A stretch of 64,000 bases of DNA from an uncultured bacterium (lineage in GTDB: Bacteria > Bipolaricaulota > Bipolaricaulia > UBA7950 > UBA9294), in assembly GCA_965370555.1 (NCBI GenBank), contig CBDUVB010000002.1:39467-103466 (forward strand). The letters run 5' to 3'. Below are positions 1-35,881 of this stretch, in pieces; within the stretch, counting starts at the first letter, position 1; the number at the start of each line of letters is the position of its first letter. A model generated the notes under the pieces. That model saw nothing but the letters and a program-made list of their open reading frames with translations, did no database searches and was not told the DNA's origin. The translations under genes and the position numbers were made by a program.

Positions 1-219
1 GCGGTCTTCTACTTCATGTTGATCCGCCCGCAGCGCAAGCGTCAGACAAAGCACAACGAGCTCGTGACAGGGATTAAGCGGGGAGACAACATAGTTACTG
101 CCGGCGGAATCTACGGAGAGATCGATTCGATTGGCGATACTTCCATCGTTATAAAGCTCGAAGATGGCGGGAAGATTCGTCTCGCCAAGAGCAGCATCGT
201 GAACAAGCAAGCTAAGTAA
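1..219 (+). CDS. yajC: Preprotein translocase subunit YajC (5-prime end cut by window edge)
   Basis: Translation ...FMLIRPQRKRQ...GDNIVTAGGIYGEI...VIKLEDGGKIRL matches the conserved YajC core; reading frame is open to position 1; immediately upstream of secD as in the canonical yajC-secDF operon. Confidence 0.8.
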   Translation, partial: AVFYFMLIRPQRKRQTKHNELVTGIKRGDNIVTAGGIYGEIDSIGDTSIVIKLEDGGKIRLAKSSIVNKQAK

Positions 220-242
220 TCGCGAAGGAGGGTTTTGAGAGA

Positions 243-1643
243 ATGGCACACAGTAACATGACAAGAAATGACTGGCTTCGGTTTGGAACAGTCCTCCTCG
301 TTGCCCTCGGCTCGCTCGCTCTTCTCTACCCGTTCTGGCCATTGAAGGACGTTGTGAACCTCGGTCTCGATCTGCAGGGTGGGGTTAGGATGGTCCTTGA
401 GGCACAGGATGTAGAAGGGATGGATGAGGGTCAGAAGAGAGATACGCTCGATCGGGTCATTGCCATTCTCAATAACCGCGTTGACCAGTACGGCCTTTCC
501 AACGCCGAGATCAAACGGATGGGAACGTCGAGGGTCTTAGTGAACCTCCCTGGAACTAAGGATCCCGAGGAGGCTCGCAACCTGATCGGTCAGACTGCGA
601 TGCTCGAGTTTCGTAAGGTGGTTGAAGCGGGGACGAGCCCCAACTCCGACCTCGTTCCCACCTCTGCCACACAGGAGGTCCTGTACAATCGGGAGGGGAT
701 TCCCTACATCGTGGAATCAACGCCCTTGCTGACCGGAGCGGCCCTTGCCGACGCGAATGTGCGCACCTCTCAATCGATGCAGACTGCTGGAAAGCTCTTT
801 ATCTCTCTCTCGTTCAACCAGGAGGGGGCGCAGCAGTTTGTGGAGGCGCTTCGCCACCTGAAAGGGGACAACCCGGATACGCCGCAGAACGAAGGGGACC
901 TCCTGGCGATCGTGCTCGACCACGTCATCTATAGCGCGCCGCGGATCACCGATTCGATCAAGACGGCCGCTGCGCAGGGTTGGCGGTCGGTACAGAATTC
1001 GACCACCATCAGCGGACAGTTCACCAAGGAGGAGGCGACTCGGATCGCGATCGTCCTGCGTGCCGGTGCCCTCCCGGTTGCGGTGAAGGTTGTCGAAGAG
1101 AACACGGTCGGCCCGACATTGGGGAACGATTCGATCCGGCGCGGGATGATCACCATCGTGGCCGGGTTCATCATCATCCTCTTCTACATGCCGGTATACT
1201 ACCGTGCTCTAGGAATCGTCGCTGATGTCGCGCTTGTTCTCAACATGTTGATCATCTTCGGGGCGCTGGTCGTTTTCAGTGCGACCCTCACCCTCCCGGG
1301 GATTGCTGGTATCATCCTGACGATCGGTATGACGGTCGACGCCAACGTGATCATCTTCGAGCGGATCAAGGAAGAACGGCGTACCGGGAAGTCTCCACTC
1401 GCCTCGGTGCGAGCTGGGTTTGAGAAGTCACTCTCCACCCTGCTCGACGCGAACATCACGACGCTCCTCACCGCGCTTATCCTCCTTCTGATCGGGACCG
1501 GTCCGATCAAGGGGTTTGCGATCACGCTGGGGATCGGTGTGGTTGGTAGCCTGTACTGTGCCTTGGTTGCTAGCCGACTCCTCCTGGAGAGGGCCGGCTT
1601 TGCCGAGCATATTCCGGCGAAGGTGGTGCAGAGCGAGTCGTAA
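243..1643 (+). CDS. secD: Protein translocase subunit SecD
   Basis: 466 aa; N-terminal TM, periplasmic domain with LDLQGG motif, C-terminal 6-TM bundle; RBS GGAGGG 8 nt upstream; follows yajC. Confidence 0.9.
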   Translation: MAHSNMTRNDWLRFGTVLLVALGSLALLYPFWPLKDVVNLGLDLQGGVRMVLEAQDVEGMDEGQKRDTLDRVIAILNNRVDQYGLSNAEIKRMGTSRVLVNLPGTKDPEEARNLIGQTAMLEFRKVVEAGTSPNSDLVPTSATQEVLYNREGIPYIVESTPLLTGAALADANVRTSQSMQTAGKLFISLSFNQEGAQQFVEALRHLKGDNPDTPQNEGDLLAIVLDHVIYSAPRITDSIKTAAAQGWRSVQNSTTISGQFTKEEATRIAIVLRAGALPVAVKVVEENTVGPTLGNDSIRRGMITIVAGFIIILFYMPVYYRALGIVADVALVLNMLIIFGALVVFSATLTLPGIAGIILTIGMTVDANVIIFERIKEERRTGKSPLASVRAGFEKSLSTLLDANITTLLTALILLLIGTGPIKGFAITLGIGVVGSLYCALVASRLLLERAGFAEHIPAKVVQSES

Positions 1644-2562
1644 CGCTAAGGATCAGTTTAAGAAGCGCATCGGAAGGACGAATGCCGCCGCGCTTGACTT
1701 CGAGATCAAGGTTGATCCCCAAGTCGAGTGCGGCGGTTAGCCTTTGCGCCGAGTACCCCTTTGCCTGTGTCGCGAGCCGGCGGACGAGCCAGGATGGCGT
1801 TCCGAGCAGCGTCGACATCTTCGCCTCTGCGATCTTGGAATCGAGGAGGACCCGTACCATCAGGAGTTTCGTCAGGTGGCGTACGACCCCAGAGAAGACC
1901 CGCCCAGGGTCCTCGTGCAGGCGAGAGAGTGTTGCGAGGCTCTCGGGAAGGTTGTGGTCTCCAATGCGGTCGAGGAGAGGGTAGATCGATCCCTCCCCCG
2001 TAGAGAACCCTACTTTCTCGATCGCGACGCGATCGATCGTCCCTCCGGAAGAGAAGGAGCGAAGCTTTCGCGCCTCCTGAGAAAGAACGAGAAGGTCGCC
2101 ATTGCACCGTGCGATCAAGACCTTCAGCGCCTGCGGATCGAGATGAACTCCCTGCGCGACCATCACCTCAGAGGCCGTGCGTTCCAAGGCCTTTCCCTTG
2201 ACAGGAGGGAGGGCCTGCACTATTCCGCGTTTTCTGGCTGCCTTGACGAGCGGGCTCGTCCCCTTCAACCCCGGCGCGAGGAACGTGAGGTGCGTCTCTG
2301 AAGGGAGATCCCGTTCGATGAGGGCGGAGAAGGGCTTCGCCTTGATCGTCTCTGCATGACGGACGACGAAGTGACGGCTCTCAGCAAAGAGAGAAGCGGA
2401 CTGAAGCTCCACCATAAGGGCGGAAAGATCAAGCTCGTCGCCGAACAAGGTGTGTCGTTCGGCCTTTGCGTCCCCTTCGAGAATCCTCGTGTGGCGAGCC
2501 TGCAGGGCCTGCTCGCAGCGGAACGGATCGCCGAAGATCAGGGCTAATTGTGGTTCAGACAT
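1570..2562 (-). CDS. holA: DNA polymerase III delta subunit (HolA)
   Basis: 330 aa; N-terminal LIFGDP...LFGDELDL...SASLFAESRHFVV motif and overall length/fold signature of HolA; low-complexity C-terminal tail overlaps secD 3-prime end by 74 bp (convergent). Confidence 0.7.
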   Translation of the reverse strand: MSEPQLALIFGDPFRCEQALQARHTRILEGDAKAERHTLFGDELDLSALMVELQSASLFAESRHFVVRHAETIKAKPFSALIERDLPSETHLTFLAPGLKGTSPLVKAARKRGIVQALPPVKGKALERTASEVMVAQGVHLDPQALKVLIARCNGDLLVLSQEARKLRSFSSGGTIDRVAIEKVGFSTGEGSIYPLLDRIGDHNLPESLATLSRLHEDPGRVFSGVVRHLTKLLMVRVLLDSKIAEAKMSTLLGTPSWLVRRLATQAKGYSAQRLTAALDLGINLDLEVKRGGIRPSDALLKLILSVTTRSAPPSPEYARQSRPSPGGVG

Positions 2563-2578
2563 AGATCCTCGCTATCAG
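2384..2578. repeat. Copy 1 (native, intact) of the holA 5-prime direct repeat (att-like)
   Basis: Sequence gcaaagagagaagcggactgaagctccaccataagggcgg...gcagcggaacggatcgccgaagatcag recurs imperfectly at 5910-6074 and 9636-9753 in the same orientation. Confidence 0.8.
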
Positions 2579-2897
2579 GTAAGATGGTTAGATCTTAGCC
2601 AGCTCTCGTGCGGGGGGCAATGGGGAGAGGAAGATATCAGCAGTCATCGGCAGCGCTGTTCGATCTTACGGATGGAAGTTGCTCACGGGACCGTGCTAAA
2701 AAGAATCCCAGCAGAAAAACATTAAGAAACAGGATCCGGACCGGTTCTCCACTCAAGGGCCTAATCATAAAATCAATCTAGCGAAGCTGCTGTTGATTTG
2801 CTAGACTTGAACATCAATGCTCAAACTACGACGTTCCTTCCGAACCGCTAACGTTTGACAGCTACATGCGCCTACTAGGCAACGGACAATGCGTAGT

Positions 2898-4328
2898 TCA
2901 TTCTGGCAGAAGCCTCTTCACGAGGTCTACGCCCAGGTAGCTGTATATGCTATCCGGAGTTGACGCTTGTGCTGACCTCCGGAGGCCAGCAATCACGCTG
3001 CCGACCAAGACCTCCCACGGCTTGTTTGAGCCCGCCAGGCCAACGAGCAGATTCCTCATTCCTTTCAGATCGGCGTAGCGCCGATCAAATCCAGAATCAC
3101 GAAACGCAATTACCTCATCACGATACTCATGCTCAGCGGTCGATGCAAGCCACGATTGGAGTTGCTTCTCCAAAGTGGCCCACTCGGTACCCATCGCAGC
3201 TAGTACTTCGTCCGATACTATGAGATTCTCCGCAGCCCTGCAATTCAAGCGCAACCGCACAAGTGGGGGTAAATCCTCAAGGGGTTGTCCAGGTACGTTA
3301 TCTCCATCCCGGAGTGAGTATCCACGCGGGTCGTCGTATACGGCGCGCAGCAAACCGGCAGCCACTTTTTCAAACTCATTCATGCCACCAACACCGTTGA
3401 CCGCACGCGGAAACAACCTAAGGCGTCCATTGGATGACCTGACTGCCTGTTGCCATATGCGCTCATCGTCCACGCCCTCAACCAGGAGGATTGGGGACTC
3501 GTTGAACACTTGCGAAAGCGGATGCGCACCGAATACCGGCAATACACGTCGATGTACCTCGTTCAGCGGCACGAAGGACAGATCAACGTCATCAGACTTC
3601 ATGAAGGCAATATGTACTGATGACACATCGGCAAGCGCCGCCATTAAGGATGTGCTATGAGTCGCCAACAGAACCCGTAGATGACTTCCCGAAAGGTGCT
3701 TGACAACGAACTGCGCAAACCTGTGCTGTAGGTCAGGATGGAGATGGAGATCTGGCTCATCGACCAACAGTATGTTCACTTGACCTTGCGCTGCTTCCTT
3801 CTGGAACACCAGCACCTCGATCGCCAGCGAGATCAGCTCCGCCTCCCCACTGCTAATGTTCCGAGGTTCGATTCGCTGCTCGTTGCCGAGCCGTATCTCA
3901 AACGCTGACCCGGTAGGAGTGATCTGAATGTTGTCTAACAAGCTGTTGATGGATTCGATGACTAAATCGAAATGGTACGTACTGGCACGGATCTCCGGAT
4001 CGTTTTGGATTTGCCGAAGCGTTGTTATTTCTAGATTACGAAACAGCGCTACGCTCTGCTCGCGAAACTGGCTGAACTGATTCGATCGCCTCGTTTCCCG
4101 GAGCCAGGTTTGATTGGTGATGATATTGTTGTCAACGTTGGGCAGGTACTGAAGCATGCCACCTCTCTCTGGAGTGAGGTAGCGAACTGTGGCAATGGTT
4201 TCATCGGCACCGAGAGCCTCTTCGAGCGTCTTGAGTAAACGGCTCTTGCCGCACCCGTTCTTGCCAACAACGACGTTGATGCGTCCAAGATTGCGGAGGC
4301 TATAACCACCTTTATCAAGAAGATCCAT
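2898..4328 (-). CDS. OLD-family-like ATP-dependent endonuclease (AAA_21-type ABC ATPase fused to Toprim-like domain)
   Basis: 476 aa; Walker A VVGKNGCGKS, signature/Walker B LLVDEPDLHLHPD, H-loop LLATHS, then ILLVEGVDDERIW resembling the Toprim LVEGxxE motif of OLD/Gabija GajA/PARIS-type nucleases. Confidence 0.6.
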   Translation of the reverse strand: MDLLDKGGYSLRNLGRINVVVGKNGCGKSRLLKTLEEALGADETIATVRYLTPERGGMLQYLPNVDNNIITNQTWLRETRRSNQFSQFREQSVALFRNLEITTLRQIQNDPEIRASTYHFDLVIESINSLLDNIQITPTGSAFEIRLGNEQRIEPRNISSGEAELISLAIEVLVFQKEAAQGQVNILLVDEPDLHLHPDLQHRFAQFVVKHLSGSHLRVLLATHSTSLMAALADVSSVHIAFMKSDDVDLSFVPLNEVHRRVLPVFGAHPLSQVFNESPILLVEGVDDERIWQQAVRSSNGRLRLFPRAVNGVGGMNEFEKVAAGLLRAVYDDPRGYSLRDGDNVPGQPLEDLPPLVRLRLNCRAAENLIVSDEVLAAMGTEWATLEKQLQSWLASTAEHEYRDEVIAFRDSGFDRRYADLKGMRNLLVGLAGSNKPWEVLVGSVIAGLRRSAQASTPDSIYSYLGVDLVKRLLPE

Positions 4329-4416
4329 AGGTCAACTGTCCTGTCCAGAAATGATCAGTTTGCGACGCTGCAACATAGTGTGCCGCGCATCGCTCCCTGT
4401 AGTTCACACGTATCAC

Positions 4417-4716
4417 TTATCCATCCCTCTCAACCCAGTCTTGCAGCTTCCTCTCGGCTTCCCTTTTAGTGCTAACGTGAAACTTGGCAACAACGATATC
4501 CAACGCGTAGCGCGCGATTTCTTCCTCGCCTCGCATCTTCACTATCCACTTAGCAGGGCCGCTTGGCTCAGTTCTGACGGCGATTACTTCATCGTGGTCC
4601 TTGTCTGCTGTCACGCGTTCGGGATGTCCTTCTGGACCTTTAACCCAAATCTCCTCAAGAGATTCTCCGAGTCCCATGCCTACCTCCTTTCCGGTTGCTG
4701 TGCGACGCACTGCCAA
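4417..4716 (-). CDS. Hypothetical small protein (99 aa; possible internal start giving about 86 aa)
   Basis: ORF with protein-like composition between OLD-like gene and AbiEi-like gene; no recognisable motif. Confidence 0.3.
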   Translation of the reverse strand: MAVRRTATGKEVGMGLGESLEEIWVKGPEGHPERVTADKDHDEVIAVRTEPSGPAKWIVKMRGEEEIARYALDIVVAKFHVSTKREAERKLQDWVERDG

Positions 4717-4912
4717 CTATATCGTGTTGCGCCCGGGGGCGCCATACATAGAACCTTCACACGGCACTGACTTGCCCCACTTCGGCGGTCCACTTCTAAG
4801 GCATTGGGGTCTTGCAAAGCAAGACGTGCGGCTACCCTTTCCCTTCTTGGTTCGCCGGCTGATCTCAGGAAGGCAACGAAAGAGCAGTCGGACCTGGGTA
4901 TCATAGCGGGAG

Positions 4913-5704
4913 TCAAACACCAGGCAACTCCTCTCGCTTTGGCACGGTGATCTGGTACTTCGAGTCGAGCTGGCCTCCCTTGTAGAGTTGGCGTTTCCCC
5001 TTACCAAGATCGACTCGTGAGGGATCCATACGGCCAAACCAGGCATGCCCAACCGTCTCCGCGCTCCAAAGAAACAGCCGTTTGACCTTCACTGATCGGC
5101 AGTTCACCAAAAGGTCCTGTACTACATTCGGCCGTAGTGTGCTGAGTCCTTCCATCAGCTGATACGCTTGTTCGACGTCGTCATTCGTTCTGGCGAGACG
5201 CATCTGCTCCATAATAGCCCGTTCTGCACTCGATATGACGACTTCGAATCCACCGCAGTCCAGTTTAGCGGTGGCCTTGTCCGGAACGTGCTCAAGCAGG
5301 GACAGGCAACGGTGTTCCAGGTTGGCCTCCCACCGGTAATTCCTGAACCATGCTGGTAGCTGTTCCGGCTGGTCGCTTACCAGGATGACCTTCTTTTGCC
5401 GCCCAAGAGGAACGAAGTGGGATAGCCCCTGCAATTCCAATGCGCTACGTCCCCCAACATGCACGGTCATGCCGAGCTGGGTCTGCAGGGCATAGAGGCC
5501 TCCCCGCCAGTCAACCTGATCGCCCGGCTGGGTGAACGCCCTTGCGCCGAAGCGCACTAGCCATCCAGATCCCACATGCCAGTTCGCCAGCTTGCTGGAT
5601 ACCCCAAGCCGGTTAAGCCATGCCTGGGTCGCGACCGTTCCCTTCGGCCACTTCCGAAACACCTGGTTCATTTTTGATGGCTTCTTACTAGTCATCCTAG
5701 TCAT
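4913..5704 (-). CDS. AbiEi-family (type IV TA antitoxin-like) winged-helix domain protein, orphan
   Basis: 263 aa; N-terminal segment RLGVSSKLANWHVGSGWLVRFGARAF fits the AbiEi_4 wHTH pattern (LGVSR..L..LV..G.L.R..RGVY); no AbiEii nucleotidyltransferase partner adjacent. Confidence 0.45.
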   Translation of the reverse strand: MTRMTSKKPSKMNQVFRKWPKGTVATQAWLNRLGVSSKLANWHVGSGWLVRFGARAFTQPGDQVDWRGGLYALQTQLGMTVHVGGRSALELQGLSHFVPLGRQKKVILVSDQPEQLPAWFRNYRWEANLEHRCLSLLEHVPDKATAKLDCGGFEVVISSAERAIMEQMRLARTNDDVEQAYQLMEGLSTLRPNVVQDLLVNCRSVKVKRLFLWSAETVGHAWFGRMDPSRVDLGKGKRQLYKGGQLDSKYQITVPKREELPGV

Positions 5705-5909
5705 CCTCGTGTAAGTCTAAACCAATAATCAGTTCAGTTCGCTTTTCCAACCAATTATCTAGCACACCTGGTTGTTTGTCAACTGAAATAAACCATCCAA
5801 GAGCCTCTCCAACACACAGCGCCACACTCCGTCAGCAGGAACAGCAGGATGACCGGCATAGGCACTCGGACTAATAGCAACAAAGGTATAATAGGGCTGA
5901 CGGGAAAAG

Positions 5910-6074
5910 TAGCGACTCTCTGCAAAGAGAGAAGCGGACTGAAGCTCCACCATAAGGGCGGGAAGATCAAGCTCGTCGCAGAACAAGGTGTGCCGTTCGG
6001 TCTTTGGATCCCCGGTGAGAATCGCCGAAGATCAGGATAAGTGGCTGTTCAGGCATGGGTCCTCGCTGAGCAGT
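5910..6074. repeat. Copy 2 (partial) of the holA 5-prime direct repeat; includes holA start-codon context and has an internal deletion of about 40 bp
   Basis: Aligns to 2384-2578: gcaaagagagaagcggactgaagctccaccataagggcgggaagatcaagctcgtcgcagaacaaggtgtgccgttcgg...gaatcgccgaagatcagg...gttcaggcat; minus-strand ORF 5759..5986 translates FCDELDLPALMVELQSASLFAESR, the same as HolA residues about 38-61. Confidence 0.8.
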
Positions 6075-6207
6075 AGGAATACCCGATCATAGCCTGAAGG
6101 ACGTAGGCAATGATGGAGCGAGGTCGTCAAGCGTTCAGCCGATGTCGCGACGGTTGGCTTCTTATGTTGCGTTACTTAGAGCGTTCCAAAAAGGCACCAG
6201 TAGTGCT

Positions 6208-6930
6208 TCACTCTTCTGCTCCTTTTTTGCTGGAACCTGATCTTCTGATCCGATATGCAAGATACAATAACTGGGATAGCATTGCGACGGAGTCAGCGAT
6301 TAGCCTTACGTGTGAGCCTTCTTTCTCTTCCCATTTCACTGGGATTTCAAGAATGCGGTAGCCTCTTTCCTTTGCGCGATAGAGGATCTCGACATCCCAT
6401 ACATAGCCTGTTGTCACGGTCTGCTGGAGGAGTTCTCTCAGAATGCTTCTCCGAAATGCTTTGAAACCACATTGGGTGTCAGCAAAGTCCGTGGTTATCA
6501 ACAGTTTCCTCAGCAGAGTGAACGCCTCTCCAAGTAACGCTCTCAAAGGTGCTCTTTGAGTTCCCTTACTCCTGACTCCAATCACTATATCGTAAGATCC
6601 CGCCAGATGCTCCAGAAACGGCATGGCTGATTCTATTGGTACTGCCAAGTCAGCGTCTGTAAGCAAAACATTAGGATATCTCGCAGCAACAACGCCTCTA
6701 CAAATTGATAAACCTTTTCCCATCCGCAAATCGTTGACTACGAGAGTGCATTCCGGAAACATACTACGTACTGCGACAGATGTCGAATCTTGGCTGTTAT
6801 CGTCCACGATGATTATTTCGTATGGAACCCCAAAAGTCTTGAAGCAGTTAGAGATGTGCCGAATTGTTGTAGGTATCCGGTTGACTTCATTGTACACAGG
6901 GATTATAACGCTCGTGCTTGCTTCATTCAT
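6208..6930 (-). CDS. Family 2 glycosyltransferase (dolichyl-phosphate mannose/glucose synthase-like)
   Basis: 240 aa; SVIIPVYNE...IIIVDDNSQD...TDADL DXD-type GT2 motifs; 8-bp overlap with upstream membrane-protein gene (operon). Confidence 0.8.
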   Translation of the reverse strand: MNEASTSVIIPVYNEVNRIPTTIRHISNCFKTFGVPYEIIIVDDNSQDSTSVAVRSMFPECTLVVNDLRMGKGLSICRGVVAARYPNVLLTDADLAVPIESAMPFLEHLAGSYDIVIGVRSKGTQRAPLRALLGEAFTLLRKLLITTDFADTQCGFKAFRRSILRELLQQTVTTGYVWDVEILYRAKERGYRILEIPVKWEEKEGSHVRLIADSVAMLSQLLYLAYRIRRSGSSKKGAEE

Positions 6931-7582
6931 TCTTCATGAGTCTCCCGATCGCTGCAGATCGAGCTCGGAGACTACAGACAATCCATATGGCAAGGGGAAC
7001 CGTAGCAGCTGTCGTGATTACCCACACTATACCTATCGGTTTTCCGAAAAGGGTTGTGTTCGCCCATAGATTCGAGAGGATAGCTACCCAAGACAAAATT
7101 GCAGGAATGGATAGAACCACGTATCTACTACCTGCTAAGAACGAATCTCCCGGCCTGCGCATATTATCAACAACAAACCTCTCCCAGGAAAACGCTTTCC
7201 TTGCAGGACGGTTGGCGCATCTTACTCGGGGCGCCAGCTTCTCTTCTATGCACTGAGCTAAGCCTAAGATGTAAGCATCTTGACGGAAATAAACTAAAAC
7301 AAGGAACCAATAGACAGGGATGATTGCTAGTAAAACCCAGAGGAACGTCTCCGAAAGAGCCAGCAGCTCCAGTGCCCCTGATTCTCCTGGTGTGGACGAA
7401 CGAGCAGCCAGCACGCCCAAGAACCCGAGGAAACCTCCGAATAGCAGAATCGCAATATGTACGAAATTATGCTCGATTTGCATCCGCGTTACAATTTCTT
7501 GTCTCAGCGTTCTGTATTCCTCCAGGATCACTTCGAGTTCTTCCTTGACTTCAACTTCGTCTTCCTTAGGTTGCTTTTCCAC
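6923..7582 (-). CDS. Membrane protein with acidic coiled N-terminus and about 4 TM helices (partner of GT2)
   Basis: 219 aa; hydrophobic stretches IAILLFGGFLGFLGVLAA, FLWVLLAIIPVYWFLVLVYF, VVLSIPAILSWVAILSNLW, IVWVITTAATVPLAIWIV; translationally coupled to the GT2 gene. Confidence 0.5.
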   Translation of the reverse strand: MEKQPKEDEVEVKEELEVILEEYRTLRQEIVTRMQIEHNFVHIAILLFGGFLGFLGVLAARSSTPGESGALELLALSETFLWVLLAIIPVYWFLVLVYFRQDAYILGLAQCIEEKLAPRVRCANRPARKAFSWERFVVDNMRRPGDSFLAGSRYVVLSIPAILSWVAILSNLWANTTLFGKPIGIVWVITTAATVPLAIWIVCSLRARSAAIGRLMKNE

Positions 7583-7988
7583 CGCGGTTCCTCCTTACTT
7601 GGCGTACTCACCCATAAGAGTAATAAGATTTGACCTTTTAGCCAATCGTCCTTGGCTCTCTCGAACAACGCTTTAACCTCCCCCGCCGACACAGGTTGTC
7701 CTACGCCCCTATTCGAACCAATCACCTACTGCATAGCCGCGCGCAGAACTACCCCGGACCGCGAGTTACCGCAGTTGCTGACCATTGTACTTAGCAATCC
7801 TAGTTACGCGACCGAAGCTTCCTTTTGTTGTAACATCAGACGGTGGCGAAACCAACATAAGCATCTGCGTAACGCAATCAACATTGGGATTCCGGGGACA
7901 CAAACCATAGTTCCGTGAAGCGCTATGTGAATCGGAGTATGTGTCCCCCGATTCCCAGTATCCTCGCTATGCCCTCTTCCCCCTTGCG

Positions 7989-9287
7989 TCAGCCTTTGCC
8001 ATCACCTGCTGCTAGCCAGACCTCGACTTCCTCTGCAGTCACTGTCTCGAATGCGATCTGCTCTCCCTCGCTCTTGATGGGGGTCAGTGGATTCAAGACA
8101 AGGGGATTGAGAGCAGTTACATCTCCATTGAGTGCTCTAAGAATAGAGGTCGACAATCTGACGATGTTCTCTTCCTCATCCGCAATTACTAAGGGGAATA
8201 TGAGGCTGTCATTGCCAACGTCAACTTCGCCATCGGTCTTTGCGCGGTCCACATGCTTGGATACGAAGTCAGAGACGTTCGTCTGGAGATCCAGGCATAG
8301 GGTACGAAGTCTTTCGATGTGCGCCCGGAGTTGGAAGAGTCTGTTCGTGAATGGCGTGAATTCATATGACGCTTTGGTTATGTCGTATTTGAGGAAGCGG
8401 CCCGACGCCAGTGCTTGATCCAAGAAGCGAGTTGAAAGTTTCCGACCCCTGCTGGTCGTAATGGAGTACGCGACAAGCCATCGCAGATACTTGCCGCGCA
8501 TTCGGCTCCGGTCGCCAAGGCTGCCATCAAAGCAGCGACGTGCGTATGAAGCCCAAACATAGGCGGGCCTTATGCCATGCTTCCCTTTCTCCATGAGGAG
8601 CGCGCTGTTCTCGAGGATCTCACGCCGGAGGTTGGCCTTGAGTGCGGAGTCTACTAGCGTATCTGAGATACCAAGATGTACTCGGAGAACGTCGACGATG
8701 TCACGAAACGTCGTGAAACTGTGAATCCAGTTGGCTCCTGGAAAAGGGGATTGCCCCTCGACTGCCGCTTTCATCTCACTTTGCCGAGAAACCTCATCAA
8801 TGAATGACGAGATGGCTTCCACGTCGGTCATGAGAGGACTAGGATGGCTCGTGATACTACGTCTCTTGTTACAACTTAGACCAAGGTACGAACTCTCCAA
8901 CTCGAGGAACAAAGCCAGCGCTTTCCGATCTTCTCTGATCTTCCACAGCTCATCACGCAGGAATGCCAGAATGCACAGCCTGCCATTGCAGGCCAACTTG
9001 TACGCCTTACGATACTCCATGCGAGTAATGCTGATCCTATTTGGGATATCATAGAACGATCCAACACGTGATCCGATGAGAAGGATGTAGTAGTCAGCGC
9101 GCTCAATTGTTCGGAGACATGCTTCGTAGGTGTTCTTGTCGAGGGCTTTCGGGAAGTCGTTCTGCTCGGAGAGGAATACCTCATAGCCGAGTTTTTCAAG
9201 GTAGTATTTGATTGCGCTGCGAAGGTCACGGAAATCCTGGATCGTAGAAGACACGAAGACTGCAGGCCTCTTTCCCATCATAAGCAT
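7989..9287 (-). CDS. DUF4062-like N-terminal domain protein with uncharacterised 340-aa C-terminal region
   Basis: 432 aa; N-terminus PAVFVSSTIQDFRDLRSAIKYYLEKLGYEVFLSEQ...ADYYILLIGSRVGSFYD matches the DUF4062 (TIR-like fold) pattern (VFISSTxxDL...R......G..V); remainder has no recognisable motif. Confidence 0.55.
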   Translation of the reverse strand: MLMMGKRPAVFVSSTIQDFRDLRSAIKYYLEKLGYEVFLSEQNDFPKALDKNTYEACLRTIERADYYILLIGSRVGSFYDIPNRISITRMEYRKAYKLACNGRLCILAFLRDELWKIREDRKALALFLELESSYLGLSCNKRRSITSHPSPLMTDVEAISSFIDEVSRQSEMKAAVEGQSPFPGANWIHSFTTFRDIVDVLRVHLGISDTLVDSALKANLRREILENSALLMEKGKHGIRPAYVWASYARRCFDGSLGDRSRMRGKYLRWLVAYSITTSRGRKLSTRFLDQALASGRFLKYDITKASYEFTPFTNRLFQLRAHIERLRTLCLDLQTNVSDFVSKHVDRAKTDGEVDVGNDSLIFPLVIADEEENIVRLSTSILRALNGDVTALNPLVLNPLTPIKSEGEQIAFETVTAEEVEVWLAAGDGKG

Positions 9288-9635
9288 TACCCCATCCTAC
9301 AAGACACTAGAGTCTAGATCCTATTACGTGATGCTTGGACATGTAGAAGAAGCGAACCACAAATGACCAAGACAGGCTTCGGGCAGATCTTGGTTTTCGA
9401 CCTCGTCATGCATGACGATACGCCTGATTGTAGAATAGAGCACCTCTACGCACTTTCGCTAATTGGGGTATCCCGATCACCGTCTCACAGACCTTTCGAA
9501 TATTCAACGTATCCCCCCATGAACAAGTACGCACGTTAATAGATGAAAGGAGTGTACAGGTTAAAAGAGGGAACTGTCAAATCTTGTGAAGGGCGGAAAA
9601 TCTAAAGAACGCATCCTTGGCAAAACTATCTGTTT

Positions 9636-9753
9636 GGGAAGATCAAGCTCGTCGCCGAACAAGGTGTGTCGTTCGGCCTTTGCGTCCCCTTCGAGAATCC
9701 TCGTGTGGCGAGCCTGCAGGGCCTGCTCGCAGCGGAAGGGGTCGCCAAAAGGC
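9636..9753. repeat. Copy 3 (partial) of the holA 5-prime direct repeat
   Basis: About 105 bp near-identical to 2414-2523 (ggaagatcaagctcgtcgccgaacaaggtgtgtcgttcggcctttgcgtccccttcgagaatcctcgtgtggcgagcctgcagggcctgctcgcagcggaa), then decays. Confidence 0.8.
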
Positions 9754-9843
9754 CTGCAACTGAACTGCTGTTCATGCTCATCTTGCATGCAACAACCCTC
9801 TTCCTTGTTCTGCTGGATATTCGCGGCTAATCTCAATGACGAC

Positions 9844-10419
9844 ATGCCAGCAATCTCGCGAGTGTGCGATGAGATCATCTCCGTCATCAGCGATAGCCTA
9901 CAAGGTGAGAACCACACGTGTATCATCATCCACGGGGAAATTGGGGTAGGGAAGACACGTCTCGCGGAACAGCTTGCCGCGGCACTTATCGAACGCAGGA
10001 TCAAGACCGGAGGAGTTCTCTCTCCCCGGATTCTCGATGGGAATGAAACCATTGGCTACACGATTCACGATCTCTCAACAGGTGAGGAAGAGCCGTTCAT
10101 CAGGCTGACCCCACCAGGGATCCCGATTGGCAAATTCTATCTGATGGAAGATGGATTAGCATTTGCTCGTGCAGCGATCGAACACGCTACAAGAGCCATG
10201 CAAGTCGTATTCGTCGATGAGGTCGGTCGTCTCGAGTGCGATGGTAAAGGACACGCCCCGGCTGTGCGAACGCTATTACGCTCGCAAGCACTTCCGGTGC
10301 TCCTCGTTCGCTCCTCTTTTGTCGAGCGAGTGGTTGAGACCTTCGGGATCGCGCGCTATGAGCTCCTTTCCGTCGAATCAGGCCTCTCGGATTTCCTTCC
10401 GGAAGAAGGACGCCCATGA
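9844..10419 (+). CDS. P-loop NTPase, THEP1-like (COG1618)
   Basis: Walker A GEIGVGKT, KTGGVLSPRI...GYTIHDLSTGEE and Walker B VVFVDEVGRLE match nucleoside-triphosphatase THEP1 layout; start placed at ATG 9844 after the repeat (longer ORF 9586.. runs through the repeat and is rejected). Confidence 0.6.
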   Translation: MPAISRVCDEIISVISDSLQGENHTCIIIHGEIGVGKTRLAEQLAAALIERRIKTGGVLSPRILDGNETIGYTIHDLSTGEEEPFIRLTPPGIPIGKFYLMEDGLAFARAAIEHATRAMQVVFVDEVGRLECDGKGHAPAVRTLLRSQALPVLLVRSSFVERVVETFGIARYELLSVESGLSDFLPEEGRP

Positions 10420-10832
10420 GCGATCGGTTCTGGGAGATCGTTGAAGGAGTTAGGTTTCCCATCTTTGTGACCAATGGAAAGGACGGGTTTCCACAGGCGC
10501 GGCCGATGACCATCCTTCTCCGTGCGGGGAGGGCCATCTGGTTTGCCACCTCCCGAAGATCGAATAAGGTGAGTGAGATCGCGGCCGACCCAAGAGTGAC
10601 GATCTTCTTTATCGATACGGTTCTATTCAACTACGCTTATCTGCACGGGCGGGCGCGCCTTATCACAGACTCGGAGGAGAAGCGAAAGCTCTGGCAGGAG
10701 GCCTGGACGGATGATTGGCCGGAAGGGCCGTCCGATCCGGACTACGTTCTCATCGAGGTAGTGGGGGAGTACGGCACGTACTACTACGGCGATAGCGATG
10801 AGTCCGGTGATGTGACGTTGTTTTTACATTAA
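10416..10832 (+). CDS. Pyridoxamine 5-prime-phosphate oxidase family protein (general stress protein 26-like)
   Basis: 138 aa; PMTILLRAG...IWFATSRRSNKVSEIAADPRVTIFF pattern typical of PPOX-class small FMN/F420-binding split-barrel proteins; 4-bp overlap with NTPase gene. Confidence 0.55.
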   Translation: MSDRFWEIVEGVRFPIFVTNGKDGFPQARPMTILLRAGRAIWFATSRRSNKVSEIAADPRVTIFFIDTVLFNYAYLHGRARLITDSEEKRKLWQEAWTDDWPEGPSDPDYVLIEVVGEYGTYYYGDSDESGDVTLFLH

Positions 10833-10865
10833 GGCGCAGCGTTTCATGGACTTCTGTAGAAGATC

Positions 10866-13586
10866 TTATTTTGAAGACACGTCAAGAGTTGTCACTGGAA
10901 CGCCGGTAATCTCCTGTATGCGTTTGACAATCCAGCCATGACATGTAAACAGAAACACTTGGCGCTTCTGCGCAATCTGGGAAAGGATCTGTACCCCTGT
11001 CTCGAAACGTTGATCATCCCAGTTAATCAGTACTTCATCTAATACAAGCGGTAGATGTTCATATGCTTCGTCTAGGTGGTCAATCACGGCCAGTCTAAAC
11101 GCAAGGAAGATCTGATCAAGTGTCCCGCCACTTAACGGAAAAGCAATTGGACGATCTTCTCCTGATTTGCTGATCACTGCCAACCGTTCTTCTTCATCTT
11201 CCAGTGTGATGATGCGAGTGTAGCGCCCACTGGTTATCGTGTTTAAATACTCACCGGCCCGCTTCAGTACATCAGGTTGGTGTTCTTCACGAAACTGCCG
11301 ATCAGCTTCCCTTAGTAAAGAAGCAAGCAGCATCAAGCGGTCATGCCGAGTACACACGTCCTCTATCTGTTCCTCGATGCTTTCTATCTTGCCGTCGAAC
11401 TCGCCCACTGAAACATCTCCACGAGCATTATCTATCTCGTTTTGCAATCTGGTTCCTTCTTCTCGCAGACGCTGCAGCTCTCCATCCTTGTCTTGGAGTT
11501 TGTCCCGCCTGATACGTGACTTCTCCACTTCCTCCTGATCTAGGACCCAGGCATCTACGTTGCCTTCTTCTAGATGGTGAATCTCTTCTTGCAATTCAGG
11601 CAGATCTGGATGATCCATCTCTAGTTGTTCTTCGATGTTCTGAATCTTTCTCAGGATCCCTTGCAGTTCAGCGGCTCTTTTCAAGGTCTCATTCGGTGGC
11701 AAATTTTCCACCACGACTTGAGTGACATGCTTCATGAACTCATCACGTGCTCCCGTAGCATCCTGTAGGGCTTTCTTTACCTCCTCTAGTTTTCCATTCA
11801 TATCCTTAATATGCCTAGCAGCCTGGTTGAAGTCTCGCTGGTGATCCTTAGCCGTATCAAGGCGGTCTTCCAGACGATTTACTGCCTCTAGGCTCGCTTT
11901 CTGCTCTCCAAATTCTCCCACCAATTCTTGCAATTCGTGTTGAGCGGCCTCCCAGTTTTCTTGTTGCTCTTGGAGGTGATAAGTCTTTTGCTTCCTTTCG
12001 CCGACATATAACCGCAGGCCCTCTACCGCCTGGTAGAGGAAGAGGTCGGGTTTCTCGATCAAGGCTGCGGCAAGAGGTAGGTCTTTCAGGATCTCTTTTA
12101 CCTCCTCGCGTGCCTCGTTCCGTGCACCATCTGCTTCCCGCTTCTGTTTTTGCAGTCGCTCAATCTCGTCCTGGCGCTGAGCTTCCAGGAGGCTGCGCTG
12201 ATGTCGGATGAAGAAGTTAAACACCAAAGCCGTAATGCCGATCAGTGTCAGGGTAGATCCAGGTGTGATAGCGGCGTGGGAGAACCAGATCCCGAGCAAG
12301 ACTGCCAGGAGACCTACTGTGATAGCTCCCACTGTAGCCCAGCCGGGCAGTTCGCCGATCATCCGTACGGGAGCAACACTTTCGATTGCAGTTTGCCGCT
12401 GTTCGACTGCCTTCTCCTTCTCCTGGAAGTTGTTGGTTCTTGTCTTTAACTCAGGGAGTACTATCCCTTCAACGGTTAGAGAAAAATCATCACGCCAGGG
12501 CTCGGCAAGGATACTCGCAGCAGTCGATTCCAGAGATCGCTGGAGCTCATCCACATCACGCTCGATCTTCTCTATGTTATGTTGTTCCTGCTCATGAGCG
12601 GTCACACGATGTGCCCAACTATCAATCTTTTCTGCACGTTCCAGAATAGAGCGATCTTCCTCGATGAATCGTTCCTGAACATCAAGTTGTGTCTTCCCTT
12701 CTTCTTTCAGTCGTTTGATAGCTTGCTCTGCGTCTTCGACATGGTCGCACAAGTGCCTGTATTCAGTCTCCAAGCCATCTGGTAGGCGTTGGGTTGCCTC
12801 AATATCAGGGATATTAGAGTGCCACTTTCCAATCTTATCCAGCCACTTTTTTAGTGGAAGCAGCAGATCGGCCTTGCGTAACTGCGCACTCAGTTTGGCT
12901 AGCTCTTCTTCAAGAGTACTTATCAGTTTTTCGACTTCGTGAGTCCTTTTCGCTTTATTGCGTATGGCCTGATCTCTTTCCACGGTCTGCTTACGGTCTT
13001 TCCTAGCGTCCTTCAATTTGCCTCTAAGATCTACGTACAGGGGCTTCCCCCTCTTATCGTTCCGCCAAAGTTTTTGGGCCTGCTTCTCAAGGTCAGCGAT
13101 GACCTGCCGTGTCGGGTTGAGTAGCTCGGCACCAAGCCCACTAAGCAATAGGTCGTCGATCTGCTTTCTCTGTGCTTTCTCAAGCGAGCGCATGTTCGCC
13201 TGGGTGAGCGCGTATAGCGCTTTGTAGAGAGTCATACTCACATGCTGCACGAAGGGGAGGTCGTGGTTGGCTAGCTCCTGGGCGCGGTCATCGCGGATGA
13301 GACGCCCCTGGGGAGTACTTGTCAGCTTCCTCCATACCTCTGCCCGAGTGCCATCCTGAAGAGTTAGCACTGCTCGTAGTTCGGGGTATCTATCCACATG
13401 CCATGGGTGGTAGGGAAAATCCGACACGGGATAAAAACCGTACAAAAGGGTGGTCAGAAGGTTGAATAGCGTGGACTTCCCGGCTTCATTCAAGCCGTGG
13501 ACAATCACCAAGTTTTCGGATACGTTCGGAATGCTGCGGTCGACAAAACAACCAAATGAGCCGATCTCTAGCTTCTCAACTCTCAT
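10866..13586 (-). CDS. YhaN/SbcE-like AAA ATPase (SbcC-related, long coiled coil, internal 2-TM hairpin)
   Basis: 906 aa; N-terminal Walker A GLNEAGKST, extensive heptad-rich middle, hydrophobic hairpin WATVGAITVGLLAVLLGIWF...LTLIGITALVFNFFI, C-terminal Walker B PLVLDEVLINWDD. Confidence 0.75.
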   Translation of the reverse strand: MRVEKLEIGSFGCFVDRSIPNVSENLVIVHGLNEAGKSTLFNLLTTLLYGFYPVSDFPYHPWHVDRYPELRAVLTLQDGTRAEVWRKLTSTPQGRLIRDDRAQELANHDLPFVQHVSMTLYKALYALTQANMRSLEKAQRKQIDDLLLSGLGAELLNPTRQVIADLEKQAQKLWRNDKRGKPLYVDLRGKLKDARKDRKQTVERDQAIRNKAKRTHEVEKLISTLEEELAKLSAQLRKADLLLPLKKWLDKIGKWHSNIPDIEATQRLPDGLETEYRHLCDHVEDAEQAIKRLKEEGKTQLDVQERFIEEDRSILERAEKIDSWAHRVTAHEQEQHNIEKIERDVDELQRSLESTAASILAEPWRDDFSLTVEGIVLPELKTRTNNFQEKEKAVEQRQTAIESVAPVRMIGELPGWATVGAITVGLLAVLLGIWFSHAAITPGSTLTLIGITALVFNFFIRHQRSLLEAQRQDEIERLQKQKREADGARNEAREEVKEILKDLPLAAALIEKPDLFLYQAVEGLRLYVGERKQKTYHLQEQQENWEAAQHELQELVGEFGEQKASLEAVNRLEDRLDTAKDHQRDFNQAARHIKDMNGKLEEVKKALQDATGARDEFMKHVTQVVVENLPPNETLKRAAELQGILRKIQNIEEQLEMDHPDLPELQEEIHHLEEGNVDAWVLDQEEVEKSRIRRDKLQDKDGELQRLREEGTRLQNEIDNARGDVSVGEFDGKIESIEEQIEDVCTRHDRLMLLASLLREADRQFREEHQPDVLKRAGEYLNTITSGRYTRIITLEDEEERLAVISKSGEDRPIAFPLSGGTLDQIFLAFRLAVIDHLDEAYEHLPLVLDEVLINWDDQRFETGVQILSQIAQKRQVFLFTCHGWIVKRIQEITGVPVTTLDVSSK

Positions 13587-14824: not shown

Positions 14825-14939
14825 GTTTTTCCTCCTCCCTTCACAGGAATTCTAACGCAAACAGGTTATAGGAGCCAGTCAAAAGATATGGAGATGCCAA
14901 GCGAAAGGCAATAAGCGTGTTCAAACTGCACACACCTAC

Positions 14940-15443: not shown

Positions 15444-15639
15444 GTTTTCACCGAACGGAAAAGGAGGCCAAAAAGAGGCCCCCTTTTCGCTACTACCGGT
15501 AGTAGAAAGGCGGTCTACGCGATAGCGGAGATAACAATAAGCGTATGCCTACCTATCACGCGACCGTCGTTGTCCCTGAAGGAATGGACTTCAGTCACCC
15601 TCGGCGGTTAGAACCCGTACTGTTTGGCCTCTTGTCGCC

Positions 15640-15860: not shown

Positions 15861-15872
15861 AGGAGGGCAGCG

Positions 15873-35107: not shown

Positions 35108-35149
35108 GCGTCCTGCTCATTTCTGCAACAGAGGGGCGCACATAGCAGC

Positions 35150-35769: not shown

Positions 35770-35881
35770 AGCATAAGAAACACACTTGACAAAGTCGAGG
35801 CGAAATGCTTTCCTTAGAGAAGCTTAAGAAAGGGATCAAGTAGAATCTGGGAACCCTTTCATACAATACAGGAGGTGCACG

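Follow-up and report, generated by a model that had tools for sequence, protein, structure and literature searches.

Stacked cassettes without a recombinase of their own at a strain-variable hotspot upstream of holA in an uncultivated Bipolaricaulota bacterium

How does accessory DNA that encodes no recombinase come to be stacked beside an essential gene, with broken copies of that gene's 5′ end between the blocks? This question is raised by a 64,000-nucleotide stretch of DNA (the whole stretch analysed, hereafter the window) from an uncultivated Bipolaricaulota bacterium, in which two small stacked cassettes without a recombinase of their own lie upstream of the essential replication gene holA. 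Approximately 7 kb of accessory DNA, delimited by holA 5′ copies, separates holA from a gene for a THEP1-like NTPase, in the order copy 3, segment 2, copy 2, segment 1 and intact holA. Within each cassette the genes point the same way, with a crippled holA 5′ copy at the distal head; all six cargo genes are oriented like holA, as are the cargo genes of four related loci (L009, L019, L020 and L034). The features of the locus are as follows.

1570–2562, minus strand: intact native holA, DNA polymerase III delta subunit (TIGR01128, PF21694, synteny)
2563–2703, minus strand: holA upstream region (alignments to relatives)
2674–5919, minus strand: segment 1, a discrete mobile cassette of 3.2 kb (edges from comparison with L034–L036)
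2898–4328, minus strand: 476-aa ABC-type ATPase of the OLD/AriA/GajA kind (Pfam, PADLOC and PDB matches)
4417–4716, minus strand: small conserved ORF of 99 aa (98% identical in L034)
4913–5704, minus strand: AbiEi_3-type wHTH regulator or antitoxin (PF11459, 155 bits; PF17194, 98 bits)
5897–6193, minus strand: copy 2, a crippled holA 5′ end plus upstream region (gapped alignment)
6194–9635, minus strand: segment 2 (Pfam, PHROGs, PDB, GC)
6208–6930, minus strand: GtrB-like GT2 glycosyltransferase (Pfam; phrog_841, GtrB-like)
6923–7582, minus strand: 219-aa membrane protein of segment 2
7989–9287, minus strand: DUF4062/TIR-like protein of 432 aa (Pfam; PDB match to KpSwz TIR/DUF4062)
9636–9749, minus strand: copy 3, a remnant of holA +28 to +140 (repeat search, alignment, L019/L020 comparison)
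9744–9843, plus strand: poly-A landmark GCCAAAAG (9744–9751), then ancestral NTPase-proximal intergenic sequence (junction comparison)
9844–10419, plus strand: THEP1-like NTPase, the right-hand core flank (PF03266, 76 bits)

The native gene is a genuine holA, scoring 150 bits against TIGR01128 (cutoff 80), and the yajC–secD–holA synteny is kept in all relatives. A repeat search of the window returned a three-copy family at 2422–2535, 5960–6073 and 9636–9749 and a second repeat block in which 2527–2573 matches 6021–6067 at 79% identity; the extra copies match the native gene with BLAST E-values of 1e-38 to 1e-49. The three direct holA 5′ copies of the original prediction were therefore recovered by repeat search and alignment, and independent assemblies reproduce them. 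They are unequal in extent and sequence, with only approximately 60 nt common to all three. The prediction had named an assembly artefact as one way in which it could fail. The source is a metagenome assembly, and in another assembly of the same population contigs stop close to the left edge of segment 1 (at 2721 and at 2750), as might be expected of a collapsed or chimeric holA locus. However, the independent contig L023 covers window positions 7311–2750 at 99.9% identity and joins both segments across copy 2, L001 continues past 2674 as far as 2721 in sequence specific to segment 1, copy 3 has the same junctions in L019 and L020, the edges of segment 1 are reproduced by L034–L036, and the copies differ among themselves. 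An artefact is effectively refuted for copies 2 and 3, and we regard its probability as negligible.

At the same site in relatives, holA directly adjoins the NTPase gene in L018 (approximately 96% nucleotide identity) and in L011–L014 (approximately 88%), and alternative cargo is present in others. These empty sites, which had been anticipated, establish the DNA between holA and the NTPase gene as accessory. One species-level population holds at least six allele types, empty ones included, with at least five alternative occupants, and occupancy varies among strains whose holA genes are 93–98% identical. Because relatives have either an empty site or different cargo there, the holA–NTPase divergent promoter region in this Bipolaricaulota population is a strain-variable insertion hotspot. 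It is also a core-gene-flanked defence hotspot, with polymorphic cargo between core genes and defence-type content, here an OLD/AriA-like ATPase, AbiEi and a DUF4062/TIR-like protein. NTPase homologues are 82–94% identical in relatives, where they adjoin holA or cargo; the start MPAISRV is conserved, and an ATG further upstream at 9787 would yield 210 aa. In many assemblies the contigs end 78–535 nt upstream of holA, and in one sample coverage was 6.3x on the holA contig versus 4.4x on the island contig, both of which would fit a heterogeneous population. Mosaic structure is seen in L019 and L020, with identity ranging from 86 to 99% along the same cargo. No extra holA copies were found in L002, L003, L004, L006 or L009. 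We rejected holA as a phylum-wide att site, as a lineage with 66% identity has a stable thyX–holA arrangement on ten contigs. A literature search returned no description of integration at holA; the matches to 'holA' concerned phage holins.

Segment 1 also lies directly upstream of a divergent holA in another lineage (L034–L036, three independent assemblies), where it is 96–99% identical to the window although that lineage's holA has only 59% protein and 63–69% nucleotide identity. Along L034, identity to the window steps from 63–69% to 96–99% at approximately 2670, and the high-identity stretch ends at approximately 5919. The surroundings of segment 1 differ in the second host, which has no NTPase gene there. 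The longest exact match between the holA regions of the two hosts is 14 nt, too short for efficient RecA recombination. In L034, the 26-nt distal end of segment 1 matches copy 2 and not L034's own holA, and only −110 to −141 and +187 to +212 of the holA region travel with the segment. By this comparison, segment 1 is a discrete horizontally mobile unit that has spread recently between lineages.

The largest gene of segment 1 encodes an ATPase with matches to Pfam AAA_21 (64 bits) and AAA_15 (56 bits), top PADLOC matches to AriAB, AriA, GajA and Old, and PDB matches to an OLD-family endonuclease (6p74) and AriA (8ux9); a homologue bears the NCBI name 'ATP-dependent nuclease'. OLD-family nucleases combine an N-terminal ABC ATPase with a C-terminal Toprim nuclease domain, and Pfam detected no Toprim domain in this protein. 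It is likely to be cargo with a defence or toxin role. The small ORF, called as 86 aa in L023 and L034, had no family match in Pfam, PADLOC, PHROGs or NCBIfam. The AbiEi-like protein (PADLOC AbiEi, E=3.5e-82) is encoded by a gene that is split in L034–L036. We did not retain an AbiE type IV toxin–antitoxin assignment, as AbiEi_3 is present without the AbiEii nucleotidyltransferase toxin, and the partner position in segment 1 is occupied by the small ORF and the AAA_21 ATPase. Segment 2 shares its right end (9418–9635) with the different cargo of L019 and L020 at 88–93% identity. Its GC content of 0.494 is the lowest of any 3.4-kb stretch of the window (mean 0.552, s.d. 0.024), and GC3 is 0.46–0.48 for two of its genes versus 0.65–0.77 for core genes; the cargo had been described as AT-rich, which holds for segment 2 and only mildly for segment 1 (GC 0.536). 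The window contains a second island, in which the 5′ 847 nt of rmuC was replaced by plain illegitimate insertion with no repeats.

The two extra copies differ in what they retain. Copy 2, for which homology is firm over 5906–6113 and probable over 5897–6193 by gapped alignment, is larger than predicted. It corresponds to holA from +212 back to approximately −137, with its ATG at 6054–6056 and the landmark TCCAAAAAG (6185–6193) at its end, and it lies directly upstream of the segment 1 genes in the same orientation. A 44-nt frameshifting internal deletion (holA +34 to +77) is located at approximately 6021. Outside a variable patch, for which copy 2 has its own allele (ILTGDPKTE), its coding part is approximately 94% identical to native holA, whereas its upstream part is only approximately 65–70% identical; it shares upstream features such as GATCATAGCC with the L004, L009 and L034 lineages. 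A mosaic origin with a special breakpoint is unnecessary, because upstream sequences in L009, L004 and others likewise diverge (63–73% identity to the window) while their flanking coding windows mostly match at 27–30 of 30 positions.

Copy 3 matches native holA at 110 of 114 positions (96.5% identity) and has no promoter, RBS or first nine codons, so that both extra copies are crippled. In L019 and L020, copy 3 has identical junctions and a shared derived base (CTCACAGCGG). The window and L020 each have form A of the variable patch in both copies, and L019 has form B in both; that is, the patch of copy 3 agrees with the native holA of the same genome in each case. These patterns show that copy 3 evolves in concert with native holA and suggest that gene conversion keeps the two similar, and describing the extra copies as decayed attR sites was too simple. 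A 150-nt stretch beside copy 3 that we considered as decayed holA showed no similarity in translation or alignment, and the 20 nt that separate copy 3 from the start of NTPase homology are not random filler, as they match the ancestral intergenic sequence AAGGCCT. An in-frame ATG precedes copy 3, and a hybrid delta protein is thus conceivable.

The original prediction placed an att site in the 5′ coding end of holA; the junctions point elsewhere. For at least four cargo types, cargo begins after the landmark GC[AT]AAAAAG, at 116, 127, 138, 142 or 167 nt upstream of the holA ATG. This 8–9-nt poly-A landmark recurs as GCTAAAAAG, TCCAAAAAG and GCCAAAAG, and as GCAAAAAAC at empty sites; it is low in complexity and differs between copies. 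Empty sites read GCAAAAAAC and then AAGGCCT. At its right edge the island regenerates this pattern as AAAAG followed by GCCTGC, with which the intergenic stretch after GCCAAAAG starts; homology to L009, L016 and L017 on the NTPase side begins at 9770. The NTPase-side junctions spread over approximately 25 nt, and some other alleles have left junctions at −66 or −68 (L021, L022, L004 and L005), giving allele breakpoints at −66, −68, −72/−82, −112 and −115. A short repeat, GGATCGCC[G/A]AAG, occurs at holA +20 to +31 and at −72 to −83 of the ancestral upstream sequence, and remnant breakpoints fall there. In the native upstream region, the proximal 72–82 nt are conserved with close relatives and the distal part (2635/2645–2703) is a cargo-linked haplotype ending in GCTAAAAAG (2695–2703); identity to L018 and L020 stops at 2631–2644. 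The native 5′ coding sequence together with the proximal upstream sequence (to −72/−82) is 96–98% identical to empty-site or other-cargo relatives, but only 63–69% identical to the other host of segment 1, and therefore follows the host lineage and not the cargo.

That the segments are stacked serially and encode no recombinase was borne out: no integrase, recombinase or transposase was found among the segment proteins with Pfam, PADLOC, PHROGs or NCBIfam, nor any integrase, resolvase or transposase among the ORFs of 150 aa or longer across the 64-kb window. The alternative cargos likewise contained no recombinase except for an IstB fragment in L022. An autonomous integrase-bearing element at this site was found neither among approximately 30 loci around holA or the NTPase gene nor in IMG/VR, which also had no match for the holA 5′ pattern, the holA profile, the ATPase or the DUF4062 protein. 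A phage or satellite vehicle was rejected on these IMG/VR results and because PHROGs revealed no integrase or excisionase in the cargo. The left and right ends of the two segments aligned locally no better than chance. The segments share no termini apart from holA-derived DNA, have no terminal inverted or direct repeats, and show no demonstrable element arms conserved around a common core of the three holA copies. The 28-nt motif at the left end of segment 1 is found nowhere else in the window at 18 or more of 28 positions. The window contains no tRNA or tmRNA that could serve as a target, and Rfam gave no structured RNA, riboswitch or attC-like match at E≤1 in positions 1–16000 or at gathering score across the window. 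Several known classes agree poorly with these results. A site-specific integrative element fits the empty sites but has no integrase at the edge here; transposons, insertion sequences and Tn7-like elements do not agree with the absence of terminal inverted repeats and transposase, nor Tn7-like logic with an ATG distance that varies from 116 to 167 nt; and an integron does not agree with the absence of an integrase, of a structured repeat shared between cassettes and of an Rfam match.

From the empty sites, the common landmark and the presence of segment 1 in two lineages, we infer that the most likely mechanism is serial accretion of recombinase-less cassettes inserted in trans, a best reading that we hold tentatively. 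Each cassette would arrive as a discrete piece of DNA and be inserted immediately beyond the poly-A landmark, at or close to a fixed position in the distal part of the holA upstream region, by a host recombinase or by the enzyme of a helper element elsewhere. The newest cassette would land beside holA and displace older ones outward. The extra holA 5′ pieces may be host DNA joined to cassettes by imprecise excision or illegitimate joining, much as specialised transducing phages form, and would then travel with the cassette, as the 26 nt of copy-2-type holA kept by segment 1 in its other host suggests; they may act as a promoter or leader for the cassette. Gene conversion of the RecA type could keep the remnants close to the real gene. 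A crossover between a remnant and native holA that deleted the island is predicted to destroy holA, because both remnants are without a usable start, which would explain why only crippled copies persist. Against serial accretion in trans, no integrase or helper element was seen in any searched locus, and the candidate core is a low-complexity 8–9-mer that differs between copies. The lack of shared segment termini and of a second 28-nt motif, the scatter of junctions on both sides and the variable distance to the ATG also count against it.

Another possible, if doubtful, explanation is sequential displacement without a site-specific enzyme, in which RecA exchanges cargo blocks between related strains through conserved flanks and new blocks are occasionally gained, either when circularised chromosomal fragments integrate by a Campbell-type single crossover or through homology-facilitated illegitimate recombination. 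Here holA-derived DNA would be the anchor, a partial copy of which is left behind, as proposed for Rhs/CDI and T6SS modules (PMC5361080). The varying allele breakpoints, the mosaic L019 and L020 cargos, the recombination between remnants and native holA, the remnant breakpoints at the short repeat, the repeat-free rmuC island, the lack of a recombinase in everything searched and the published analogue all favour it, as do the partial holA copies between modules with the intact gene at one end. However, segment 1 lies beside holA genes so divergent that homology sufficient for RecA anchoring was not found, at least four cargo types have a common insertion landmark, and cargo genes are consistently co-oriented.

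An att core inside the holA coding sequence, with each element bringing its own 5′ end and promoter and the displaced ends decaying as attR, is quite unlikely. Its topology fits partial copies that are direct and co-oriented and an intact gene that stands at one end; copy 3 keeps the ancestral orientation and NTPase-side position and could be derived by a deletion of approximately 150 nt; and both cargo–copy junctions fall within the first 212 nt of the 993-nt gene. Yet the native 5′ end is host-like and not cassette-linked, only the two short stretches noted above move with segment 1, no core was identified within the approximately 60 nt common to the copies, and an integrase was detected neither in the segments nor elsewhere in the window nor in the alternative cargos. 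It is very unlikely that the locus is a non-mobile fossil, in which local holA 5′ duplications and old insertions became fixed and inert. The segments do lack mobility genes, both extra copies are crippled and AbiEi is split in the second host; however, occupancy is polymorphic among close strains, segment 1 has spread recently between lineages, contigs end at the junction and one sample shows unequal coverage. A further reading, unlikely when taken in full with its decoy, is that the cassettes represent a hitherto undescribed type of targeted mobile element that, in distant Bipolaricaulota lineages, homes to the region upstream of holA without a known recombinase. Its mobility would come from an unrecognised host activity or from its own AbiEi-like wHTH protein and OLD-type ATPase/nuclease, and the crippled holA decoy would act as cargo promoter or leader and make loss by repeat recombination lethal, holding an essential gene 'hostage'.

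Serial accretion in trans, our preferred reading, can be set beside several known systems. Tandem islands at ssrA in Dehalococcoides reportedly bring a module for a site-specific integrase, and their direct repeat, at the 3′ end of the gene, is short and constant. The holA cassettes resemble them in standing in tandem at a single-copy essential gene, with direct repeats of a gene end and strain-variable content, but have no integrase, and their repeats are 114 to approximately 350 nt long and lie at the 5′ side. CIMEs are integrase-less, att-flanked, cis-mobilisable elements that accrete site-specifically, using att sites of a known ICE/IME family with the same target. The holA cassettes are likewise integrase-less, tandem at one site and presumed to rely on another element's recombinase; unlike for CIMEs, no ICE/IME family, att core or helper was found among approximately 30 loci and IMG/VR. 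Islands specific for dusA, and SXT in prfC, encode a tyrosine integrase and supply a new 5′ end to the gene. Here too the target is at the 5′ end of a housekeeping gene, with a displaced fragment at the far end, but the gene-adjoining 5′ end is host-type, and the insertion point lies farther upstream than the promoter-proximal region. Integrase-free defence-island hotspots are polymorphic between core genes, with defence and toxin–antitoxin content, deviating GC and many occupants without an integrase, all of which the holA locus shares. To our knowledge, such hotspots normally contain neither recurring fragments of an essential gene at their flank nor the same cassette beside the same gene in distant lineages, and the holA locus differs in having both.

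Integrase-less islands have mostly been dismissed as fossils or as products of flanking homologous recombination. Segment 1 is a defence/toxin–antitoxin cassette with sharp ends at the same holA-relative place in lineages whose holA genes are too divergent for ordinary homologous recombination. Its presence in two divergent lineages, together with at least six alleles, makes the locus a tractable natural system for recombinase-less cassette insertion and gives an early view of island dynamics in an uncultivated phylum. It also offers a candidate case of disabled partial copies of an essential gene maintained by gene conversion, and the structure of the remnants suggests that only copies unable to support viable island loss survive.

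The closest published parallel is provided by T6SS effector–immunity arrays of Vibrio cholerae and Rhs/CDI orphan modules, in which modules are added beside a conserved gene and older ones are pushed distally, with conserved-gene fragments between modules and no dedicated recombinase (PMC5361080, which also cites Rhs C-terminal displacement). The mechanism proposed there is homologous and homology-facilitated illegitimate recombination, after which arrays are exchanged homologously between strains; what recurs in these arrays is a portion of a polymorphic toxin gene, whose variable tip, together with an immunity gene, makes up the cargo (PMC5361080). The holA cassettes share the modules beside a conserved gene, the gene fragments between them and the lack of a dedicated recombinase. 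They differ in that an essential replication gene supplies the recurring piece, namely its promoter and 5′ end, that the cargo consists of unrelated toxin–antitoxin or defence and surface modification genes, and that segment 1 has crossed between hosts whose anchors are only 63–69% identical.

Our analysis shows that the DNA between holA and the gene for a THEP1-like NTPase is a polymorphic hotspot, occupied in the window by two stacked, recombinase-less cassettes with a common insertion landmark. Three copies of the holA 5′ end had been predicted; a repeat search of the window found all three (2422-2535, 5960-6073 and 9636-9749), together with a second repeat block (2527-2573 versus 6021-6067, 79% identical). 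The partial copies matched the native gene with BLAST E-values of 1e-38 to 1e-49, and gapped alignments revealed that copy 2 is larger than predicted.

holA, its partial copies and the cassettes
1570-2562, minus strand: native holA (TIGR01128, 150 bits against a cutoff of 80; PF21694)
2674-5919: segment 1
5897-6193: copy 2, from holA +212 back past the ATG (6054-6056), plus ~137 nt of upstream sequence
6194-9635: segment 2
9636-9749: copy 3, holA +28 to +140, with 110 of 114 positions as in the native gene (96%)

Copy 2 carries a frameshifting deletion of +34 to +77 (44 nt); its coding part is ~94% identical to the native gene with the variable patch set aside, and its upstream part ~65-70%. 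Copy 3 has no promoter, RBS or first nine codons. Both copies are disabled. A palindrome beside copy 3, GCATGC at 9785-9790, provides an ATG on each strand. The plus-strand ATG is a possible NTPase start that would give 210 aa; the other, in frame and 13 codons before copy 3, opens an ORF of 163 aa (9561-10052) running through the holA remnant.

All six cargo genes point in the same direction as holA. Segment 1 encodes a 476-aa ABC-type ATPase (Pfam AAA_21 and AAA_15; PADLOC models AriAB, AriA, GajA and Old; PDB matches 6p74 (OLD) and 8ux9 (AriA)), a conserved small ORF with no function assigned, and an AbiEi_3 regulator (PADLOC E=3.5e-82) whose AbiEii partner is absent from the segment. Segment 2 encodes a GtrB-like GT2 glycosyltransferase (phrog_841), a 219-aa membrane protein and a DUF4062/TIR-like protein whose sole PDB match is KpSwz, a DUF4062/TIR protein. 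As predicted, the segments lack mobility genes: searches with Pfam, PADLOC, PHROGs and NCBIfam found no integrase, resolvase or transposase domain in the segment proteins, and none in the other window ORFs that are 150 aa or longer. Outside the segments the window carries housekeeping genes and genes of the Wood-Ljungdahl pathway, as is typical of Bipolaricaulota; it contains neither tRNA genes nor Rfam matches. The cargo had also been expected to be AT-richer than its surroundings. This held for segment 2, whose GC of 0.494 is below that of every other 3.4-kb stretch in the window (mean 0.552, s.d. 0.024), and less clearly for segment 1 (0.536); the left flank has a GC of 0.583. GC3 is 0.46-0.48 in the segment 2 GT2 and membrane genes, against 0.65-0.77 in core genes.

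A second, AT-richer cassette lies elsewhere in the window, where it took the place of an intergenic region together with the 5′-terminal 847 nt of rmuC, a gene intact at this position in two related loci (L011 and L015). No flanking repeats were seen around it.

Second cassette and its edge
10809-14940: cassette of 4.1 kb, GC 0.503
10866-13586, minus strand: Rad50/SbcC-like AAA_27 ATPase
13583-14824, minus strand: Mre11/SbcD-like phosphoesterase
14940-15443: rmuC remnant, the C-terminal 167 codons alone

A 3-kb stretch without large ORFs (33990-36957) holds a small putative gene pair resembling a RelE/HigB-type toxin and an HTH antitoxin (34383-35107), and a 258-nt direct repeat, 88% identical (35496-35753 and 36536-36793), in which a 90-91-aa gene (MNEEKIRREEFVISGEKLV...) occurs twice. 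A short repeated element with the core CTCTCGCAAAGACGCAGAGAACGC occurs at 35147-35194 and 35291-35338, as two exact copies 144 nt apart (chance expectation 0), and also at 15774-15988 versus 35247-35319; near 15774 there is also a match to a related stretch of 76 nt that lies downstream of rmuC in L015. Neighbouring AAA_14/DUF4143 ATPase genes (38955-40172 and 40783-42093), with a 185-aa ORF between them, may mark another accessory patch.

The nearest genomes are those of Candidatus Bipolaricaulota. These relatives have conserved flanks, yajC-secD-holA on one side and NTPase-PNPOx on the other, around DNA that varies; in many assemblies contigs end 78-535 nt upstream of holA. The original prediction had proposed looking for an empty site, and such sites exist.

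Occupancy of homologous loci in other assemblies
L018: holA side 95.7% identical in nucleotides (BLAST); empty, 186 nt between start codons versus 7281 nt in the window
L011-L014: holA side ~88%; empty
L009, L016, L017: holA side ~86% (L009); one DUF7309/DUF6930 gene, without holA remnant
L019, L020: holA side 93-98%; other 5.8-kb cargo (1357-aa, 188-aa and 184-aa proteins)
L021, L022: holA side 97.1% (L022); ParA-like gene and IstB fragment
L004, L005, L015: holA side ~83% (L004, L005); still other sequence

The copy-3 remnant of the window recurs in L019 and L020 with identical junctions, and the ~150-220 nt preceding it are common to all three. In a more distant lineage (holA 66% identical), a thyX-holA arrangement is stable across 10 contigs. 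Together, the varied occupancy and this stable lineage indicate that the hotspot is real, polymorphic at about the species level and restricted to the clade in which holA and the NTPase gene lie side by side in divergent orientation. The ParA-like ATPase and truncated IstB (IS21 helper) genes upstream of the 97%-identical holA of L022 (3533-6636 of that locus) point away from holA, and their junction is at about -66, not at the poly-A landmark.

Alignment of all junctions showed that cargo starts directly past this landmark, which lies in the distal upstream region of holA.

Landmark sequences
Window, native holA to segment 1 (2695-2703): GCTAAAAAG
Window, copy 2 to segment 2 (6185-6193): TCCAAAAAG
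L009: GCAAAAAAAG
L019 and L020: CTACAAAAG and CTGCAAAAG, respectively
L034, an other-lineage host of segment 1: GCTAAAAAG
Empty sites: GCAAAAAAC then AAGGCCT...

A precise empty junction would read GC(A/T)AAAAA joined to AGGCCTGC. On its right, the island ends where copy 3 adjoins GCCAAAAG joined to GCCTGC, that is, the landmark plus ancestral NTPase-proximal sequence.

A 97%-identical homologue of the segment 1 ATPase (P0149) was found on three contigs from three samples (L034-L036). There, the entire segment 1 lies directly upstream of a holA whose protein is only 59% identical. The neighbourhood differs too, with genes that encode a porin-like protein and a secreted protein of 486 aa, and an NTPase gene is absent. 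Identity to L034 changes stepwise, from 63-69% across holA and its upstream region to 96-99% between ~2670 and ~5660 and 85-89% at the right end of segment 1, with none past ~5919. A 28-nt motif, GGAAGTTGCTCACGGGACCGTGCTAAAA, forms the start of the left edge; the window and L034 agree at 26 of its positions. The right edge in L034 carries 26 nt of holA (+187 to +212) in the copy-2 version, not that of L034's own holA, and the junction of segment 1 with copy 2 is thus older than the spread. Because the longest exact match between the holA regions of both hosts is 14 nt, RecA-anchored exchange between them is unlikely. Segment 1 is a discrete mobile unit with sharp ends, common to distant hosts. 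Its left-end motif, without a second copy in the window, includes a small palindrome, CACGG-GA-CCGTG (2682-2694), that could be a protein-binding site. In L034-L036 the AbiEi-like gene (L034 3838-4621) is split in the gene calls into ORFs of 61 aa and 185 aa and may be frameshifted; the ATPase and small ORF there are intact and 97-98% identical.

The remnants recombine with native holA. Codons 27-35 form a variable patch with two forms, A (ILEGDAKAE) and B (IIEEHPEAE); form A occurs in the native gene and remnant of both the window and L020, and form B in both copies of L019. The remnants of these three loci have a single origin, since they share junctions and one derived base. In the window, the four mismatches between native gene and copy 3 are confined to the two repeat edges, the pattern expected of gene conversion; the repeats evolve in concert. 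A crossover of the native gene with either remnant would delete the island and, as predicted from the sequence, leave holA defective, which would explain why crippled copies alone are seen, with the caveat that the in-frame ATG before copy 3 may allow a hybrid holA protein. A short repeat, GGATCGCC[G/A]AAG, is present at holA +20 to +31 and at -72 to -83 of the ancestral upstream region. Remnant breakpoints fall on it, which points to short-homology deletions in the shaping of the remnants.

How the cassettes arrived can be read in several ways. We tentatively favour, at slightly below even chances, a trans-supplied activity that would insert cassettes next to holA. The holA 5′ pieces would then be host DNA picked up by imprecise excision or joining, now moving at the head of each cassette, possibly as a promoter or leader because the co-oriented AbiEi-ATPase genes follow directly downstream of copy 2. 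The main rival, which we consider rather unlikely, is sequential displacement, a scheme put forward for T6SS effector-immunity arrays and Rhs loci (PMC5361080) in which homologous recombination acts together with homology-facilitated illegitimate recombination. Breakpoints that vary among close strains, the identity mosaic of L019 versus L020, the lack of a detectable recombinase in the proteins searched and the repeat-free Rad50/Mre11-like island in the same window all fit displacement, whereas the presence of segment 1 in L034, the landmark common to the insertions and the uniform direction of the cargo genes argue against it.

The original prediction placed the att site in the 5′ coding part of holA, a model in which the element would bring its own substitute for the 5′ end. 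The native 5′ coding and proximal upstream sequence (to -72/-82) is, however, 96-98% identical to that of empty L018 and other-cargo L020, and therefore belongs to the host lineage and not to the cargo, which starts at the upstream landmark; we regard this exact model as improbable. A non-mobile fossil seems slightly less probable still. An assembly artefact, the alternative attached to the original prediction, is very improbable, as a contig of another assembly (L023, ERZ25073599) runs through copy 2, reaching into both segments, and is 99.9% identical to window 7311-2750. A second contig of that assembly (L001) matches 1553-2721 at 100%. The two leave 2722-2749 uncovered and differ in coverage (6.3x in L001, 4.4x in L023), which is compatible with a mixed population at this junction.

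A literature search turned up nothing that describes holA as a target of insertion. The value of the locus lies in its natural set of empty, singly and doubly occupied alleles, which could reveal how recombinase-less cassettes move. It works most like systems of serial accretion or displacement, namely Rhs/T6SS arrays, the tandem ssrA islands of Dehalococcoides and CIME accretion, but belongs to none of them. No integrase and no constant att core could be identified, which sets the locus apart from ssrA islands and CIMEs; transposons differ from it in having terminal inverted repeats and a transposase, both absent here; and in contrast to Rhs/T6SS displacement, its spread exceeds the reach of anchor homology.
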